DNA of 64,000 nt from Solirubrobacterales bacterium (GTDB lineage: Bacteria; Actinomycetota; Thermoleophilia; Solirubrobacterales; 70-9), in contig JBJMKQ010000069.1 in assembly GCA_045805725.1 (NCBI GenBank), forward strand, positions 8,813-72,812, written 5' to 3'. The first letter of the stretch is position 1. Each line of letters opens with the position of its first letter. The notes under the pieces were generated by a model that did not search any database, was not told the DNA's origin, and saw only the letters and a program-made list of their open reading frames with translations. The translations under genes and the position numbers were made by a program. This document shows, piece by piece, positions 33,832-41,163 of the stretch.

Positions 33832-36459
33832 TTACTTGGCGTTGAGCCAGTCGGTCCCGACGCCGACGTCGACCTCGAGCGGCGGTTCGAGCGGGTAGGC
33901 GGCGCACATCTCGCGCCGCACCAGCTCGGCCGCCGTCTCCATCTCCCCCGGCGGACCCTCGAAGAGGAGCTCGTCGTGGATCTGCAGGACCAGGCGGGTC
34001 TCCCCCCCAGCCTCCCGCAGCGCCCTCTGACAGCGCACCATCGCCACCTTGATGATGTCGGCGGCGGTGCCCTGAATCACGGTGTTGACAGCGAGGCGCT
34101 CGCCGAGGCGGCGGGTGTTCGGGTTGGCGGAGCGCAGCTCGGGGATCGCCCGGCGACGCCCCATCAGCGTCGTCACGAATCCCTCCTCCTGGGCGCGCTC
34201 GATCACCTGCTCGCGGAAGGCGCGCACCGCGGGGAAGCGCTCCAGGTAGCGGGCGACGAATTCCTCGCCCTCCTTCCGCGGGATGTTGAGCCGGTCGGCG
34301 AGGCCGAACCCGGTCAGCCCGTAGACGATCCCGAAGTTGACCATCTTCGCCTTCGAGCGCTGGCCGACGTCGACCTCGTCGCGCTCGATCTCGAAGACCT
34401 CGGCGGCGGTGGCGGCGTGCACGTCTTCGCCCTTGCGGAAGACCTCTTTCAGCACCTCCTCGTCGGCGACGTGGGCAAGAACGCGCAGCTCCACCTGGCT
34501 GTAGTCGGCGGAGAGCAGCCGCGCCCCCTCCTCGGCCACGAAGCAGGCCCGGACCGGGCGGCCGAGGTCGGTACGGATCGGGATGTTCTGCAGGTTCGGG
34601 TTGGTGCTGGAAAGGCGGCCGGTCGTGGTCGAGGCCTGGTTGAAGGTGGTGTGGACGCGGCCGGTCTCGGGGTCGATCAGCTCCGGCAGCGAATCGAGAT
34701 AGGTGTTCTTCAGCTTCGTCAGCTCCCGCCAGGACTCGATCCTGGGGATGATCTCGTGCTCGTCGCGGATCTGCGCGAGGACGCGGGCGTCGGTCGAGAA
34801 GCCGGTCTTGCCGCGGCGCTTGCGGGTCAGCTCGAGCTTCTCGAAGAGGATGCGGCCGACCTGCTGGGGAGAACCGATCGTGAACTCCTCTTCGGCCAAG
34901 TCGAAGATCTCCTTCTCCAGCGTGGCGATGCGCTCGCCGAAGCCGGCGCCGACCTCGGCCAGCCGCTCCGCGTCCAGCTTCAGTCCCTCGCGCTCCATCG
35001 CCGCCAGCACGCCGACCAGCGGCAGCTCGATCTCGCTCAGCAGCCGCTCCAGCCCCAGCTCCTGGATGCGCGGCACCTGCACCGCCGCCAGGGCGGCAAC
35101 GAGGCGTGCTTCCTCGGCCGGCTCGAGACCGGGCTCGAGCTCTTCGCCCAGCGCCATTTGGCCGCCGTCCTCCTCGGCCTCCGCGGCGGCGGCGCCCTCG
35201 GCGAGGCCGATCCCGGCGTCGGCGGCAAGCTCGACGAGGTCGTAGGTGCGCCGCTGCGGCTCCAACAGGTAGGCGGCGACCATCGTGTCGTGCTCTAGAT
35301 GCGGCTCGACCCCCGCGCGTGCCGCGGCGGCGAGCAACCCGTGGCGGCCGCCGCCGAGAGACTTGGCGTCGTGGGCGGCGAAGGGCTTGCCGTCGAGGGC
35401 GACCGCGAGCTCGTCGTGCGAGTTCGAGCCGGCGAGGATACGCTCCGCTTCGGCCGCCGCCCAGCGGTCGCCGGCGATCGCCAGGGCGACGGGGCCGTTG
35501 CCGATCTCTCCCGGCTTCCCCGCCACCGCCTCGACCTCCAGCTCGGTCTCGACCCTGCGCCCGGGCACGGCCGCGCCCTCGGGCAGCGCTTCTTCCAGCC
35601 GCTCCATCACCGCCCGCAGCTCGAACTCACGCATGAACTCGCGCAGGGCACCGCGATCGGGCTCGCTCGACATCGCTTCCTCCAAGTCGACGCCGGTCTC
35701 GATCTCGTACTGCAGCGTCGCCAGCTGCTTCGAGAGCCGGGCGTCCTCGGCGTGCTCCACCAGGTTCTGCTTGCGTTTGGCGCCGGAGACCTGGTCGACG
35801 TTCTCCAGCACCGCTTCCAGTGAGCCGAACCGCTGCAGCAGCTGAGTCGCGGTTTTCTCGCCGATCCCGGGGACGCCGGGGATGTTGTCGGAGGTGTCGC
35901 CCCGCAGCCCCATCAGGTCACAGATCAGCTCCGGCGGCACCCCGTAGCGCTCTTCCACCGCGGCCCGGTCGTAGATCTTCGTCTCGGTGATCCCGCGCGA
36001 GGTGCTCATCACCCGCACCCCCTCGTCAACCAGCTGGTAGGCGTCGCGGTCGCCGGTCACGACCATCACCTCGATCCCCTCCTCGCGCGCCTGCCTGACC
36101 AGCGAGGCGATCACGTCGTCTGCCTCGAAGCCTTCGACCCTGACGTTGGTGTAGCCGAAGGCCTCGACCAGCGGCATCAGGTGCGGCCACTGCTCGCGCA
36201 GCAGGTCGGGGCGCGGTTTGCGCTGCGCCTTGTAGAGGTCATACGTTTTCTCGCGGCCGCTGTAGCCGGCGTCCCAGGCAACGACCACGCCCTGCGGATG
36301 GTGTTCGTCGATGATTTTCACCAGCATCGAGGCGAGCCCGTAGATCGCGTTCGTCGGCCGCCCGTCGCTGGTCCCAATCGACTCGGGCAGGGCGAAGAAG
36401 GCGCGGTAGGCGAGGCTGTTGCCGTCGATCAGGAAGAGCTGCGGGGCGTCGGCCGTCAT
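33832..36459 (-). CDS. polA: DNA polymerase I
   Basis: 875 aa. 5'-nuclease N-terminus LFLIDGNSLAYRAFFALP and pol A family motifs (DYSQVELRVLAH, QIHDELLFE). Confidence 0.97.
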   Translation of the reverse strand: MTADAPQLFLIDGNSLAYRAFFALPESIGTSDGRPTNAIYGLASMLVKIIDEHHPQGVVVAWDAGYSGREKTYDLYKAQRKPRPDLLREQWPHLMPLVEAFGYTNVRVEGFEADDVIASLVRQAREEGIEVMVVTGDRDAYQLVDEGVRVMSTSRGITETKIYDRAAVEERYGVPPELICDLMGLRGDTSDNIPGVPGIGEKTATQLLQRFGSLEAVLENVDQVSGAKRKQNLVEHAEDARLSKQLATLQYEIETGVDLEEAMSSEPDRGALREFMREFELRAVMERLEEALPEGAAVPGRRVETELEVEAVAGKPGEIGNGPVALAIAGDRWAAAEAERILAGSNSHDELAVALDGKPFAAHDAKSLGGGRHGLLAAAARAGVEPHLEHDTMVAAYLLEPQRRTYDLVELAADAGIGLAEGAAAAEAEEDGGQMALGEELEPGLEPAEEARLVAALAAVQVPRIQELGLERLLSEIELPLVGVLAAMEREGLKLDAERLAEVGAGFGERIATLEKEIFDLAEEEFTIGSPQQVGRILFEKLELTRKRRGKTGFSTDARVLAQIRDEHEIIPRIESWRELTKLKNTYLDSLPELIDPETGRVHTTFNQASTTTGRLSSTNPNLQNIPIRTDLGRPVRACFVAEEGARLLSADYSQVELRVLAHVADEEVLKEVFRKGEDVHAATAAEVFEIERDEVDVGQRSKAKMVNFGIVYGLTGFGLADRLNIPRKEGEEFVARYLERFPAVRAFREQVIERAQEEGFVTTLMGRRRAIPELRSANPNTRRLGERLAVNTVIQGTAADIIKVAMVRCQRALREAGGETRLVLQIHDELLFEGPPGEMETAAELVRREMCAAYPLEPPLEVDVGVGTDWLNAK
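36334..36440. repeat. proximal copy of a 107-nt direct repeat (polA codons ~7-42)
   Basis: Manual alignment to 39006-39112 gives 102/107 identical in the same orientation. Confidence 0.85.
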
Positions 36460-36509: not shown

Positions 36510-37835
36510 TCAGACCTCGCCCGACTCCAGCAGACCGACCAGAGCCGCCACGACCGCAGGGTCGAACTGGGTCCCAACGCAGGCACGCAGCTCGGCGATC
36601 GCCGCATCGACGCTCATCGCCTTGCGGTAGGAGCGAGTCGTGGTCATCGCGCTGAAGGCGTCGCAGCAGGTGACGATGCGAGCCTCGACCGGAATCTCCT
36701 CGCCCACCAAGCCATCGGGATAGCCGGATCCGTCGAAGTCCTCGTGCGAGGCGCGGACGATGCGGCCGACCTCGGCAAGGACGCCGCCGATCCGCTTCAG
36801 CATCCGCTCGCCTTCGATCGTGTGCTGGCGCATGACCTGCCACTCCGCCTCGTCGAGCGGGCCCTTCTTGTTGATGATCTCGTTCGGCACCGAGATCTTG
36901 CCGACGTCGTGGAGGAGGGCGGCGAACTCGACGTTGCGACGCTGCTCGAACTTGAGGCCGAGGCGATCGCTGACGGCCAGCGACAGATCGACGACGCCGC
37001 GGCTGTGGCTGCCGGTATAGGCGTCGTCTGCCTCGACTACGTCCCCCAGCAGCAATGCCGTGCCCTGGTATGCCTCGCTGAGGGTCAATGCCTGGTCGAG
37101 CCGGGTCTGCCGCTCGCGCGAGAGCACGGCGAGGACGGCGGCGAGCGGGATCACCAGCAGGCAGGCCTCCGGTCCTAATTGCAGCGCCACCACCGCCGCG
37201 AGCAGGCCAATCGGCGCCAAGGCGGCGTCGAGGCCGTAGACCGGGGCGATCATCCCCAGCACGGCGGTGGGCGGGGTCCGGTCGATCAGCCGTGCCCGCG
37301 CGGCGGTGGCGGCGAAATCAAAACCGAACTGGGAGAGCAGGGCGAGCACATAGATCGGCCAGGCATCCCAGGAGAAGGTCTGGGCGCTGAAAGCCGCGAT
37401 CACGAAAGCCGGACCGACCGCGTGCCAGCAGTCACCGAAGACATGGAAGGCGCGGTGGATGCTGGTGTGGCCGCTGGCGTAGTCGATCAGGCGTCCCAGC
37501 GTCCAGCTGAGGCTGACCACCAACGGCACCAGCGGCGTCGGCAAGAGAAGGAGCATCGGCACCAGGACCAGCTCGGTGGGCACGGTGTAGCCGTCGGCGA
37601 TGTCGAACCTCGCCTGGCAGGCGATCACGTAAGCGGCCACCAGTGAGACCAGGGGGGCGATTTCGAGCGGGCGCGGGGACTCCATGAACACGGCCATCGC
37701 CGAGGCCATCAGCAGGAAGCCCCCGCCGGCCGCCAGCTCGACCGCGCGCTCACGGCCATGCGCCTTGATCAACGCCCGGGTGCGGCCACGCGCGTACAGC
37801 TGCTCGGGATTGGTTGCCGGAGTCGCGGTCTGCAT
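36510..37835 (-). CDS. HD-GYP domain c-di-GMP phosphodiesterase with N-terminal multi-pass membrane domain
   Basis: 441 aa. About 7 N-terminal TM helices, then LLHDVGKISVP, HTIEGERML and SHEDFDGSGYPDGL (HD...GYP signature). Confidence 0.9.
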   Translation of the reverse strand: MQTATPATNPEQLYARGRTRALIKAHGRERAVELAAGGGFLLMASAMAVFMESPRPLEIAPLVSLVAAYVIACQARFDIADGYTVPTELVLVPMLLLLPTPLVPLVVSLSWTLGRLIDYASGHTSIHRAFHVFGDCWHAVGPAFVIAAFSAQTFSWDAWPIYVLALLSQFGFDFAATAARARLIDRTPPTAVLGMIAPVYGLDAALAPIGLLAAVVALQLGPEACLLVIPLAAVLAVLSRERQTRLDQALTLSEAYQGTALLLGDVVEADDAYTGSHSRGVVDLSLAVSDRLGLKFEQRRNVEFAALLHDVGKISVPNEIINKKGPLDEAEWQVMRQHTIEGERMLKRIGGVLAEVGRIVRASHEDFDGSGYPDGLVGEEIPVEARIVTCCDAFSAMTTTRSYRKAMSVDAAIAELRACVGTQFDPAVVAALVGLLESGEV

Positions 37836-38012
37836 GAGAACAGGGGGTTCTCAACCCCACCTCTGACCCCTACATCGGCCAGCCAAGGCCTGGAAATGAG
37901 CGCTTTCCTATTTTCCCGCTCCACAAGTGCGAAAAGTAGCTAGAGAATCCGTCCAAATGGCTTCAGTCAGGGGGTCCGGCCGCCGATGCACCGGCCACAT
38001 AAGCGCAGATTT

Positions 38013-38116
38013 GAGCTGAATAAGGGCAAACCTGTCGCGAGGCAGGGACGCAAAGTCAGAGGTCTCGTCCTTGACGAGACGGCTCGGCCGCCAGCTTGGT
38101 GAAAACCAGGCTTTTT
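38013..38116 (+). promoter_or_regulatory. candidate c-di-GMP-I (GEMM-I) riboswitch with terminator-type expression platform
   Basis: GGGCAAACC-UGUC-GCGA-GGCA-GGGACGCAAAG (38024-38055) has the two conserved GEMM-I blocks flanking a GNRA-capped 6-bp helix. P1 is GAGCUG (38013-18) / CAGCUU (38092-97). The second hairpin is GUCUCGU (38062-68) / ACGAGAC (38074-80). The terminator AGCUUGG-UGAAAA-CCAGGCU plus a U run (38093-38116) overlaps the P1 3' strand. Confidence 0.7.
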
Positions 38117-38142
38117 CGCCTGCGACCAGGAGGTTTACCCAA

Positions 38143-38748
38143 GTGAAGTCGATCCGAAAGGTCCTTGCCATCGTCGTCGCCGCCGTCGCGGTCAGCGGGC
38201 TCTCCGCGGCTGCAGCTGAGGGCGCCAGCTGCCCCTATGACGGGGCAGAACAGGTCTTCAAGCCATGGGGCGATGCGAAGAGCTACGTCCTGGCTCCCGA
38301 TGGAGGGTTCGAGTCGGGCGGCGTCGGCTGGGCACTCGGCAACGGCGCCGAGACGGTGCCGGGCAACGAGTCCTTCTACCTCGGCGACCCCTCCGACGAA
38401 CGGTCGCTCTCGCTGCCGGCCGGCAGCACCGCCGTCAGCCCGCCGGTCTGCATGTCGCTGGACACGCCCACCTTCCGCCTCCTCGCTCGAAACACGGGCG
38501 ATCCCAACTCGACCCTGCGGGTCGAAGCGATCTACCCGCTGCTGGGCCTGCTCCGCACCAAGACCCTGAGCACGGTCAAGGCGGGCCCGAGCTGGGCGCC
38601 GACCCAGCAGATGTCGACCGTCCTCACCCTCTCGGCGATCGTCGGCACCCTGATCCCCAGCGCGGTCCAGATCCGGATCACGCCGGTGGGCAGCGGTGGC
38701 GGTTGGCAGGTCGACGACCTCTACATCGACCCCTTCGCCCGCCGCTAG
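38143..38748 (+). CDS. secreted protein of unknown function (possible jelly-roll / carbohydrate-binding-like fold)
   Basis: Trimmed to GTG 38143, 9 nt after AGGAGG. Signal peptide KSIRKVLAIVVAAVAVSGLSAAAAEG. The GGFESGGVGWALGNGAE motif is reminiscent of CBM-like beta-sandwich domains (weak inference). Confidence 0.65.
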   Translation: MKSIRKVLAIVVAAVAVSGLSAAAAEGASCPYDGAEQVFKPWGDAKSYVLAPDGGFESGGVGWALGNGAETVPGNESFYLGDPSDERSLSLPAGSTAVSPPVCMSLDTPTFRLLARNTGDPNSTLRVEAIYPLLGLLRTKTLSTVKAGPSWAPTQQMSTVLTLSAIVGTLIPSAVQIRITPVGSGGGWQVDDLYIDPFARR

Positions 38749-39258: not shown

Positions 39259-39516
39259 CTACGCCTTCGGCGGCAGCGACATTGCGTAGTCGGCGCCCGC
39301 GTCGACCCACTTCGCAAGGTCCTCGTCGCTCGCAGTGCCTTCGGGATCGACGTAGACCATGTTCTTCATCGGCTTCCCCGTGAAGTCCATCGGCTGCGTG
39401 TGCGCCTCCCGCAGCGCCCGCTCCGCGTCGACGGGATCGAGCCGAACCATCAGGTCATCGCCGATCGCTCCCACGGCCATGTTGCCGGCGAGCATGAAGG
39501 CGATGCCGCCGAACAT
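39259..39516 (-). CDS. TfoX N-terminal-domain protein, apparently 5'-truncated (possible pseudogene)
   Basis: 85-aa ORF MFGGIAFMLAGNMAVGAIGDDLMVRL...PMDFTGKPMKNMVYV matches the TfoX_N core. The same frame stays open 33 codons upstream (to TGA 39616-18) and encodes family-like ...RAAVRSELSERR, but contains no ATG/GTG/TTG. Confidence 0.6.
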   Translation of the reverse strand: MFGGIAFMLAGNMAVGAIGDDLMVRLDPVDAERALREAHTQPMDFTGKPMKNMVYVDPEGTASDEDLAKWVDAGADYAMSLPPKA

Positions 39517-39699: not shown

Positions 39700-41163
39700 A
39701 TGGCTGTCAGCGCCCAGTACAGCGTCACGATCCGCGTCGAGCTCGATGCGCGGCAGGAGCCCCTCGGGCGGCTCACGGCTGCGATCGCCGAGGCGGGCGG
39801 GCAACTGCAGGGGGTCGACCTGGTGCCGGGCGCCGGGCCCGAGGGAAAGCGGGTGCGCGAGTTCACGATCGACGCCGCCGACCGCGAGCATTGGGAGAAG
39901 ATCCTGCGGGCGATCGGCTCGACCCGGGGCGCCCGTGTCCTCGACTACGTCGACCGCACGATGCAGATGCACCGCGGCGGCAAGATCGAGCAGCGCAACA
40001 AGTACCCGCTGAAGACCCGCGACGACCTCTCGATGGCCTACACCCCCGGCGTCGCCCGTGTCTGCATGGACATCCACGCCGACCGCAGCAAGGCCTTCGA
40101 GTACACGATCAAGAAGAACACGGTCGCGGTGGTCTCCGACGGCAGCGCTGTCCTCGGCCTCGGCAACATCGGCCCCGAGGCGGCGATGCCGGTGATGGAG
40201 GGCAAGTGCATGCTGTTCAAGGAGTTCGCCTCCGTCGATGCTTTCCCGATCTGCCTCGACACCCAGGACGCCGACGAGATCGTCCGCGCGGTCGAGTTGA
40301 TGGCCCCCACCTTCGGCGGCGTCAACCTTGAGGACATCTCGGCCCCGCGCTGCTTTGAGATCGAGGAACGGCTCAAGGAGTCGCTGGATATCCCCGTCTT
40401 CCACGACGACCAGCACGGCACCGCGATCGTGACGATGGCGGCCCTCTTCAACGCGCTGAAGATCACCGGGAAGCCGATCGAGCAGCTGCGGGTGCTGGTG
40501 GTGGGCCTCGGCGCCGCCGGGGTGGCGGTGACGAAGATGATGCAGGAAGCCGGCGTCAGCCACATCGTCGGCTGCGACCGCCAGGGCGCGCTTTCGACCG
40601 ATCGCGAGGACTACGCGTCGGGCGAGATGAACGCGACCAAGCGCTGGTTCGCCGAGACCTTCAACCCGGACAAGGTCAGCGGCAGCCCCGATGACGCGGT
40701 CGAGGGGATGGACCTCTTCGTCGGCCTCTCCGGGCCGGGAATCATCCAGGCCGATTCGCTGGCGAAGATGAACGACGACGCGATCGTCTTCGCGATGGCC
40801 AACCCGAACCCCGAGGTGATGCCCGAGGATGCGGCGCCCCACGCGCGGATCATGGCCACCGGCCGCTCCGACTACCCGAACCAGATCAACAACGTGCTCG
40901 CCTTCCCTGGCGTCTTCCGCGGCGCCCTCGACGCCGGCGCCCCCAGCATCACCGAGGAGATGAAGCTCGCCGCCGCCAAGGGGATCGCGATGGCGGTGTC
41001 CGAGGCCGACCTCGCCGAGGACTACATCATCCCCAGCGTCTTCAACCGCGAGGTCGCCCCGAAGGTGGCCGAAGCGGTGGTCGAGGAGGCCAAGCGCGAC
41101 GGCATCGCCCGGCTCAACGAGGAGACCGGGACCTTCGCCGCGGTGGAGAGCCCGGGGTACTAG
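39700..41163 (+). CDS. NAD(P)-dependent malic enzyme with N-terminal ACT-like domain
   Basis: 487 aa. LSMAYTPGVARVC, FHDDQHGTAIV and GLGAAGVA motifs; about 75 aa of ACT-like N-terminal extension. Confidence 0.9.
   Translation: MAVSAQYSVTIRVELDARQEPLGRLTAAIAEAGGQLQGVDLVPGAGPEGKRVREFTIDAADREHWEKILRAIGSTRGARVLDYVDRTMQMHRGGKIEQRNKYPLKTRDDLSMAYTPGVARVCMDIHADRSKAFEYTIKKNTVAVVSDGSAVLGLGNIGPEAAMPVMEGKCMLFKEFASVDAFPICLDTQDADEIVRAVELMAPTFGGVNLEDISAPRCFEIEERLKESLDIPVFHDDQHGTAIVTMAALFNALKITGKPIEQLRVLVVGLGAAGVAVTKMMQEAGVSHIVGCDRQGALSTDREDYASGEMNATKRWFAETFNPDKVSGSPDDAVEGMDLFVGLSGPGIIQADSLAKMNDDAIVFAMANPNPEVMPEDAAPHARIMATGRSDYPNQINNVLAFPGVFRGALDAGAPSITEEMKLAAAKGIAMAVSEADLAEDYIIPSVFNREVAPKVAEAVVEEAKRDGIARLNEETGTFAAVESPGY

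Follow-up and report, generated by a model that had tools for sequence, protein, structure and literature searches.

A predicted c-di-GMP-I ON riboswitch preceding the gene of a secreted protein across Solirubrobacterales

How is the gene of a small secreted protein controlled when its leader carries an apparent riboswitch for cyclic di-GMP (c-di-GMP), and when it stands back to back with a gene of the HD-GYP type? The question is raised by a 64-kb stretch of DNA (the window, meaning the whole stretch analysed) from a metagenome-assembled genome (MAG) of Solirubrobacterales, a soil actinobacterium lineage in the Thermoleophilia (Actinomycetota). A preliminary description had placed there a c-di-GMP-I (GEMM-I) riboswitch with a competing terminator, and the sequence and coordinates that it gave (38024-38055, the helix P1, the hairpins, AGGAGG and GTG 38143) are correct on direct reading. 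The account favored here is that of a canonical c-di-GMP-I ON switch that would control a secreted beta-sandwich protein by transcription termination; taken as a whole, this account is considered probable. The features are listed in Table 1.

The identity of the aptamer was examined by scanning the whole window against all 4227 Rfam families with gathering scores applied. A single match reached its gathering score, that of RF01051 (c-di-GMP-I/GEMM-I), at 56.0 bits against a threshold of 35 (E = 2.9e-8 for 64 kb and 4227 families), covering model positions 1-87 of 87. The check proposed in the preliminary description, a cmsearch with this model, thus gave the expected hit, and any Rfam-based annotation pipeline would give the element its label automatically. 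From its sequence and its conservation, the element is almost certainly a canonical class I c-di-GMP riboswitch aptamer.

Conservation was followed by scanning one genome per GTDB species, which yielded 80 distinct loci with orthologous proteins 59-79% identical; the leaders of these loci were aligned with that of the window (alignment A2, 81 sequences). An aptamer core lies about 120 nt 5' of the ortholog in all 80 species-level Solirubrobacterales loci, and GEMM-I, which had been thought uncommon in high-GC actinobacteria, is not rare in this lineage. The core-motif search located the aptamer in 66 of the 80 loci; the remaining 14 have RF01051 matches of 49-57 bits in the same place, and a further 17 sampled loci gave 15 matches to RF01051 and 2 (L018 and L026) to RF03167. 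Riboswitch calls were accordingly made by Rfam models in 31 loci, all of which reach the gathering score with GEMM-I clan models (29 with RF01051, 2 with RF03167), and by core motif plus alignment in the remainder.

When the Rfam structure plus P1 is imposed on the alignment, 93.1% of cells are paired, compared with 31-42% in slid controls. Eight base pairs show compensatory changes, with 49 cells altered on both sides, and none of 500 column shuffles attains the observed covariation values. These figures uphold the earlier proposal of three helices, a GNRA loop and helix changes that compensate one another. The covariation is confined to P2 and P3; P1 (AGCUG/CAGCU) is paired in 90% of cells and is invariant or nearly so, and for that reason it gets neither support nor contradiction from covariation.

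The stretch 38024-38055 reads GGGCAAACCTGTCGCGAGGCAGGGACGCAAAG. The 5' strand of P1 is followed by the junction AAUAAGG (38019-25) and by P2 (38026-38051), which has G38026-C38051 and C38027-G38050 as its closing pairs and ends in the hairpin CCUGUC-GCGA-GGCAGG (38031-46), the GCGA loop, of the GNRA type, lying at 38037-40. An AAA linker (38052-54), invariant in the 81 sequences, joins this hairpin to P3 (38054-38089), a nearly continuous helix whose inner hairpin, GTCTCGT (38062-68) with ACGAGAC (38074-80), is extended by GAG/CTC across a GG bulge. Across the alignment the P2 tetraloop is either GCGA or GUGA, and the columns for the 11-nt tetraloop receptor (CUAA...AuG) are deleted in the cmscan alignment of the window. 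In GEMM elements this receptor is expected with GAAA loops and almost never with GYRA loops (Weinberg et al. 2007, PMC1950547). The loop sequence and the lack of the receptor thus assign the element to the known receptor-less GYRA subclass of GEMM-I.

In the bound class I aptamer, A47 stacks between the two c-di-GMP bases. In the Vibrio cholerae Vc2 aptamer, G20 pairs with one ligand guanine and C92 with the other (PMC6140456), and the numbering was anchored on the listed Vc2 contacts G14-C15-A16-C17-A18-G19-G21...C46-A47-A48-A49-G50 (PMC7288161). By alignment, the equivalents of G20, A47 and C92 are G38025, A38052 and C38091, the last assigned by its position after P3 and less certain than the other two. 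G20 and A47 are invariant in alignment A2, and the CC at the C92 equivalent is at least 90% conserved. The presence of the canonical residues at these positions argues for the canonical c-di-GMP type, as opposed to the cyclic GMP-AMP (cGAMP) subtype or the GGC variant, and c-di-GMP is the predicted ligand.

A different ligand, either 3'3'-cGAMP, as in GEMM-Ib, or that of the c-di-GMP-I-GGC variant, is most improbable. HD-GYP enzymes hydrolyse cGAMP in Vibrio, which lends the neighboring gene to such a reading; moreover RF03167 (c-di-GMP-I-GGC) is the best clan match to the window in E-value mode, at 54.2 bits, and its gathering score is just exceeded at L018 and L026. Against cGAMP, G38025 holds its identity throughout the alignment, whereas cGAMP sensors carry A at this position (PMC6140456). 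Against the GGC variant, the RF03167 consensus has GCGAAg at a site that is GCAAAG in the window and its relatives, and the window falls under the RF03167 gathering score of 59 while lying far over that of RF01051. To judge from the two Rfam consensus lines, G instead of A at position 47 is what probably defines the variant. The receptor-less shape common to both best accounts for the cross-hits to RF03167.

Two apparent exceptions were followed up and set aside. About a dozen relatives (L041, L062 and L018 among them) seemed to carry a cGAMP-type A20, but the variable position is 19. Candidate GGC variants were treated as clan cross-hits, all sequences that match RF03167 carrying A47. The matches at L018 (3857-3939) and L026 (3787-3870), which score 61.5 and 59.8 bits against 59 despite reading GCAAAG, appear to be cross-hits within the clan, to which an automated annotation might give the wrong label.

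If the aptamer binds c-di-GMP, how would binding be converted into control of the gene? Immediately 3' of the aptamer, 38093-38112 form the hairpin AGCUUGGU-GAAA-ACCAGGCU, which has AGCTTGG (38093-99) and CCAGGCT (38106-12) as its arms and runs into U5 (TTTTT, 38112-38116). The stem has 8 bp and a free energy of -11.2 kcal/mol, with the first U possibly paired, and the hairpin is part of the minimum-free-energy fold of 38005-38125. All 81 leaders have it, with pairing in 97.5% of cells and free energies of -9.5 to -17.1 kcal/mol, and in 78 of 80 leaders it is followed by 4-6 U within 8 nt. The inner stem and loop differ among leaders in length and sequence; the overlap of the 5' arm with the 3' strand of P1 is kept in every one of them.

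If the aptamer hairpins are kept fixed, the calculated free energy is -37.3 kcal/mol for the terminator state and -31.6 kcal/mol for the P1 state; P1 is found in the minimum-free-energy fold of transcripts that end at 38097-38105 and gives way once synthesis has reached 38112. The gap of 5.7 kcal/mol is small beside the binding energy of a picomolar to nanomolar ligand, and a picomolar dissociation constant is cited for Vc2 (PMC6140456). In the mechanism proposed, c-di-GMP would bind at the three-helix junction and lock P1, 4-5 nt of whose 3' strand double as the start of the terminator 5' arm. In the absence of ligand, the more stable terminator would displace P1 as soon as its 3' arm was transcribed, and transcription would stop before the Shine-Dalgarno sequence. 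With ligand bound, P1 would hold, the terminator could not nucleate and the gene would be transcribed, such that high c-di-GMP would switch on the secreted protein, which resembles a carbohydrate-binding module (CBM).

Because the 5' arm of a conserved hairpin with its U tract overlaps the 3' strand of P1, an ON switch that acts by antitermination and is kinetic in design is the likely mode of control. Both the ON direction and termination as the regulated step are predicted from the leader sequences. The same ON logic was proposed in 2007 for GEMM elements in which a terminator overlaps the aptamer at its 3' side (Weinberg 2007, PMC1950547), and the architecture is therefore not new to GEMM. 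As the preliminary description had it, a predicted terminator competes with P1: the arrangement is conserved in the 81 leaders and is energetically coherent, the ON logic keeping its status as a prediction.

Several observations weigh against this account. A generic terminator scan gave no call at the hairpin; in our reading this is because the stem was extended over the first T, leaving only 4 T to be counted in the tail. With 4-5 U, the U tract is short, and a few relatives have a degenerate one, such as UCAUCAGC at L063. Like P1, the outer terminator stem is nearly invariant, and it is because of this that there is almost no covariation to raise the ON logic above prediction. A sigma-70 scan found no promoter, and P1 is preceded, at a distance of only 1-10 nt, by the conserved CACATAAG; were this a -10 element, the 5' strand of P1 might be partly untranscribed in some clades. 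Riboswitches of Actinomycetota are reported to favor translational platforms (PMC12452182). Finally, the termination model does not account for the GCCUGC at 38118-23, which is at least 90% conserved in alignment A2 and is complementary both to the terminator 3' arm and to the 3' strand of P2, either pairing being compatible in about 97% of cells.

The last two points, together with the short U tract and a Shine-Dalgarno sequence only about 15 nt beyond it, are what a translational reading would build on. In such a reading the aptamer is real and control is translational or dual, the hairpin and GCCUGC reorganizing the Shine-Dalgarno region; alternatively, the polarity is OFF. An arrangement of this kind is unlikely. 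Neither of the two GCCUGC pairings shows any compensatory change, and both were rejected. The one anti-Shine-Dalgarno candidate in the 81 sequences, CCUG/CAGG, was rejected likewise, being held in 81% of cells with no covariation and with one pair broken in 46 of the 81, so that no conserved anti-Shine-Dalgarno element was found. A long-range GCA/UGC pairing offered by RNAalifold was disregarded because it comprises only 3 invariant base pairs. A terminator needs a U run and a translational switch does not, and a hairpin with U4-6 behind it recurs in nearly all of the relatives, which favors termination over the translational alternative.

Among the translation signals, GGAGG stands 6-10 nt 5' of the aligned ATG or GTG in alignment A2, and GTG 38143 aligns with the ATG or GTG of the orthologs. 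The conservation extends in the other direction as well: 5' of the riboswitch, the block AAAA-N5-TAGA(C/G)A-N15-TTNAGT (37932-67) occurs in 81 of 81 leaders and also in a relative that has no riboswitch (L082, at about 1413-1450). It is followed in all 81 leaders by CCGAT and CACATAAG (37983-38003). A promoter or an operator that also serves the divergent HD-GYP gene is one possible role for the block. Its reading as a standard promoter (TAGACA-N15-TTNAGT) that would fix the transcription start site was rejected, the spacing being non-standard and no start site assignable. In many relatives TAGAC-N5-GTCTA is palindromic; a BldD box was considered and abandoned because the palindrome does not match TNAC-N5-GTNA.

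The whole leader, non-aptamer parts included, is unusually conserved, with a mean column identity of 72% beside proteins that are 60-77% identical. This could suggest that the terminated leader of about 100 nt is functional in itself, as a small RNA or c-di-GMP sponge, beside or instead of cis control, and a preprint states that the Vc2 riboswitch regulates an upstream small RNA via RNA stability (bioRxiv 10.1101/617340). Such a role is very improbable. The element always stands directly 5' of the same gene, with Shine-Dalgarno sequence and start at a fixed distance, and it moves together with that gene (at L076, discussed below); no target complementarity was seen, and none was searched for.

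Table 1. Features of the riboswitch locus (window coordinates)
Feature	Coordinates	Strand	Remarks
HD-GYP gene	36510..37835	-	441-aa polytopic membrane protein, C-terminal HD-GYP; PF13487 HD_5 at residues 265-428
Upstream block AAAA-N5-TAGA(C/G)A-N15-TTNAGT	37932..37967	.	conserved in 81 leaders
P1 5' strand GAGCUG	38013..38018	+	pairs with 38092-38097
c-di-GMP-I (GEMM-I) aptamer	38015..38095	+	RF01051 match, model positions 1-87
P1 3' strand CAGCUU	38092..38097	+	38093-38097 common to terminator 5' arm
Terminator-like hairpin and U tract	38093..38116	+	stem-loop 38093-38112, U tract 38112-38116; predicted expression platform
Conserved GCCUGC	38118..38123	+	directly 3' of terminator U tract
Shine-Dalgarno sequence AGGAGG	38128..38133	+	GGAGG conserved in alignment A2
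Regulated gene, 201-aa secreted protein	38143..38748	+	GTG start at 38143

What, then, is the protein that the riboswitch would control? The gene encodes 201 aa, with a signal peptide at the N-terminus and two cysteines (C30 and C103) that do not vary; a hypothetical protein from a Solirubrobacterales MAG matches it at 100% identity. The 1,109 homologs (E <= 0.001), all unnamed or "hypothetical", come from Solirubrobacterales/Actinomycetota MAGs and soil metagenomes, and the family comprises 1,898 clusters at 50% identity (E <= 0.001). No match was found in Pfam or NCBIfam, in a Pfam search with 50 diverse relatives or in a profile search of the sequences in the Protein Data Bank (PDB), in agreement with the initial view of a secreted protein without assigned family.

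Structure prediction was more informative. An AlphaFold (AF2) model built on a diverse alignment is a beta-jelly-roll, with a mean predicted local distance difference test (pLDDT) of 86.6 and a predicted template-modeling score (pTM) of 0.81. Its best PDB neighbors by Foldseek are CBM22, CBM4, CBM16 and CBM61 modules and MAM domains (E = 5e-7 to 1e-5), with template-modeling scores of about 0.6 when normalized to the module and identities of 11-19%. The likeness is at the level of fold, and the protein falls outside the curated CBM families. The model thus suggests a secreted, CBM22/CBM4-like beta-sandwich of an uncharacterized family, possibly with a surface, matrix or adhesion role under c-di-GMP. 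A CBM-like secreted protein that came on at high c-di-GMP would fit the usual link of this messenger with matrix and adhesion. Among the gene families associated with GEMM in 2007 are "carbohydrate-binding protein", "chitin/cellulose binding domain" and HD-GYP genes (PMC1950547); GEMM elements with this architecture and with target genes of this kind have therefore been described, which tempers the preliminary description.

The 307-nt spacer (37836-38142) separates this gene from the divergent HD-GYP gene and has 57.7% GC, compared with 69.5% for the whole window, much as the preliminary description had put it (about 300 nt, lower in GC and shared by the two genes). The HD-GYP assignment also stands: PF13487 HD_5 matches at E = 1.2e-36 and the HDVGK and GSGYP motifs are present, making the product a putative c-di-GMP phosphodiesterase. 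An HD-GYP ortholog is divergently upstream in 78 of the 80 loci, the exceptions being a truncated contig and L076. A motif search of the window revealed neither a GGDEF gene nor a convincing candidate for an EAL gene.

More distant relatives bear on the history of the pair. In a set of secreted-protein homologs 40-58% identical (L081-L087), of which 6 have usable upstream sequence, an HD-GYP ortholog (46-72% identity) is divergently upstream in 5 of the 6. No GEMM-I clan match was found in these distant loci even at E <= 0.01, and the spacer there is shorter by about 100 nt, with 205 nt in L082 as one instance. Since distant relatives keep the pair without the riboswitch, the gene pair would be older than the riboswitch. 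One genome, OY969417.1 (2.51 Mb), holds two paralogs of the secreted-protein gene: that at L082 adjoins an HD-GYP gene and has no riboswitch, while that at L076 has the riboswitch and adjoins an acyl-CoA dehydrogenase gene in place of HD-GYP. Because it accompanies the paralog at L076, the riboswitch appears tied in cis to the secreted-protein gene and not to HD-GYP. We infer that the riboswitch is a clade-specific acquisition.

The same facts accommodate a bolder idea, in which the two genes are an old functional pair, the secreted protein serves as co-sensor or partner of the HD-GYP protein, and the inserted GEMM-I ON switch makes a feedback loop: high c-di-GMP would give more of the secreted partner, which would alter HD-GYP activity. 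This is distinctly unlikely. If true, it would amount to a new c-di-GMP input/output module and would give a function to a family of about 1,900 clusters. The occurrence of the pair with and without the riboswitch offers a natural comparison for the recruitment of a riboswitch into an existing gene pair.

Other genes lie close by. A TfoX_N open reading frame (39259-39516, minus strand; 85 aa, PF04993 E = 2e-12) is convergent to the regulated gene. Genes of the tfoX family are classic GEMM targets in Vibrio; a link to the riboswitch was considered and is taken as coincidental, the open reading frame being found in only 4 of the 80 loci. Beyond it lies a malic enzyme gene (39700-41163, plus strand) with a weak N-terminal ACT-domain match (E = 1.9e-4, below the Pfam cutoff), and on the far side of the HD-GYP gene is that of DNA polymerase I (PolA; 33832-36459, minus strand), recognized by its translation and high conservation. 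Because they are found in only a subset of loci (27-32 of 80), malic enzyme and PolA are not counted as part of the module.

The related loci yielded further observations. At L085 (810-2634) three tandem beta-sandwich domains, carried by a 218-aa gene and a 377-aa two-domain fusion, stand between uvrB and uvrA, with neither riboswitch nor HD-GYP gene. A B12-dependent methionine synthase gene lies directly downstream at L082. In three relatives, matches to the SAM-I riboswitch (RF00162) that score above gathering stand close to the locus, at L039 (496-596, minus strand), L055 (3541-3641, plus strand) and L080 (8332-8432, minus strand).

With respect to distribution, c-di-GMP effectors in Actinomycetota are known mainly as proteins, BldD and RsiG for example, and the present results point to riboswitch control by c-di-GMP as a fixed trait of an entire order of soil Actinomycetota, most of it uncultured. 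The 2007 description of GEMM lists delta- and gamma-proteobacteria, Firmicutes and Planctomycetes, and not Solirubrobacterales (PMC1950547). No report of GEMM-I in Thermoleophilia or Solirubrobacterales was found in a literature search of partial coverage, which counts as absence of evidence. The riboswitch would place the secreted-protein family in c-di-GMP-controlled surface or matrix biology. For this large group of small beta-sandwich proteins, which carry no annotation, it is the first handle on function.

Comparison with known systems puts these results in proportion. The element shares with the GYRA subclass of GEMM-I (RF01051; Weinberg et al. 2007; Sudarsan et al. 2008) the two AAA-joined hairpins, the receptor-less GNRA loop, the G20, A47 and C92 residues, a predicted terminator that overlaps the 3' side of the aptamer and a placement in the 5' untranslated region of an environment- or surface-related gene. 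It differs in its host, a member of the Solirubrobacterales, and in regulating an unannotated family. In its biology it resembles Vc1-gbpA of V. cholerae, in which a GEMM-I aptamer likewise precedes a secreted protein of the carbohydrate-binding or adhesion type. Vc1 is a positive (ON) regulator, and its expression platform is not known to be a simple P1-overlapping terminator. Vc1 and Vc2 have a GAAA loop with its receptor, whereas the element here has GCGA without one, and GbpA, a chitin-binding colonization factor, is a multidomain lytic polysaccharide monooxygenase adhesin unrelated in sequence to the regulated protein. Vc1 is reported to regulate downstream expression in response to c-di-GMP (PMC4744006).

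Two further systems have the same aptamer fold. In Geobacter pilM, a GEMM-Ib element and transcriptional ON switch, ligand prevents the terminator, as is proposed here (PMC10118264); it senses cGAMP through A20, whereas the present element has G20. In Cd1 of C. difficile the switch is a transcriptional OFF switch, opposite in polarity to the prediction made here. The regulated protein has the beta-jelly-roll in common with CBM22, CBM4, CBM16, CBM61 and MAM domains, but it stands alone with no attached enzyme, and no ligand-binding residues can be assigned. As a riboswitch the element contributes little that is new, since its class, its receptor-less subclass and the ON design with an overlapping terminator are all standard knowledge. 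It is of value chiefly because it ties an unannotated secreted family and a conserved HD-GYP partner to c-di-GMP signaling in an understudied soil lineage.

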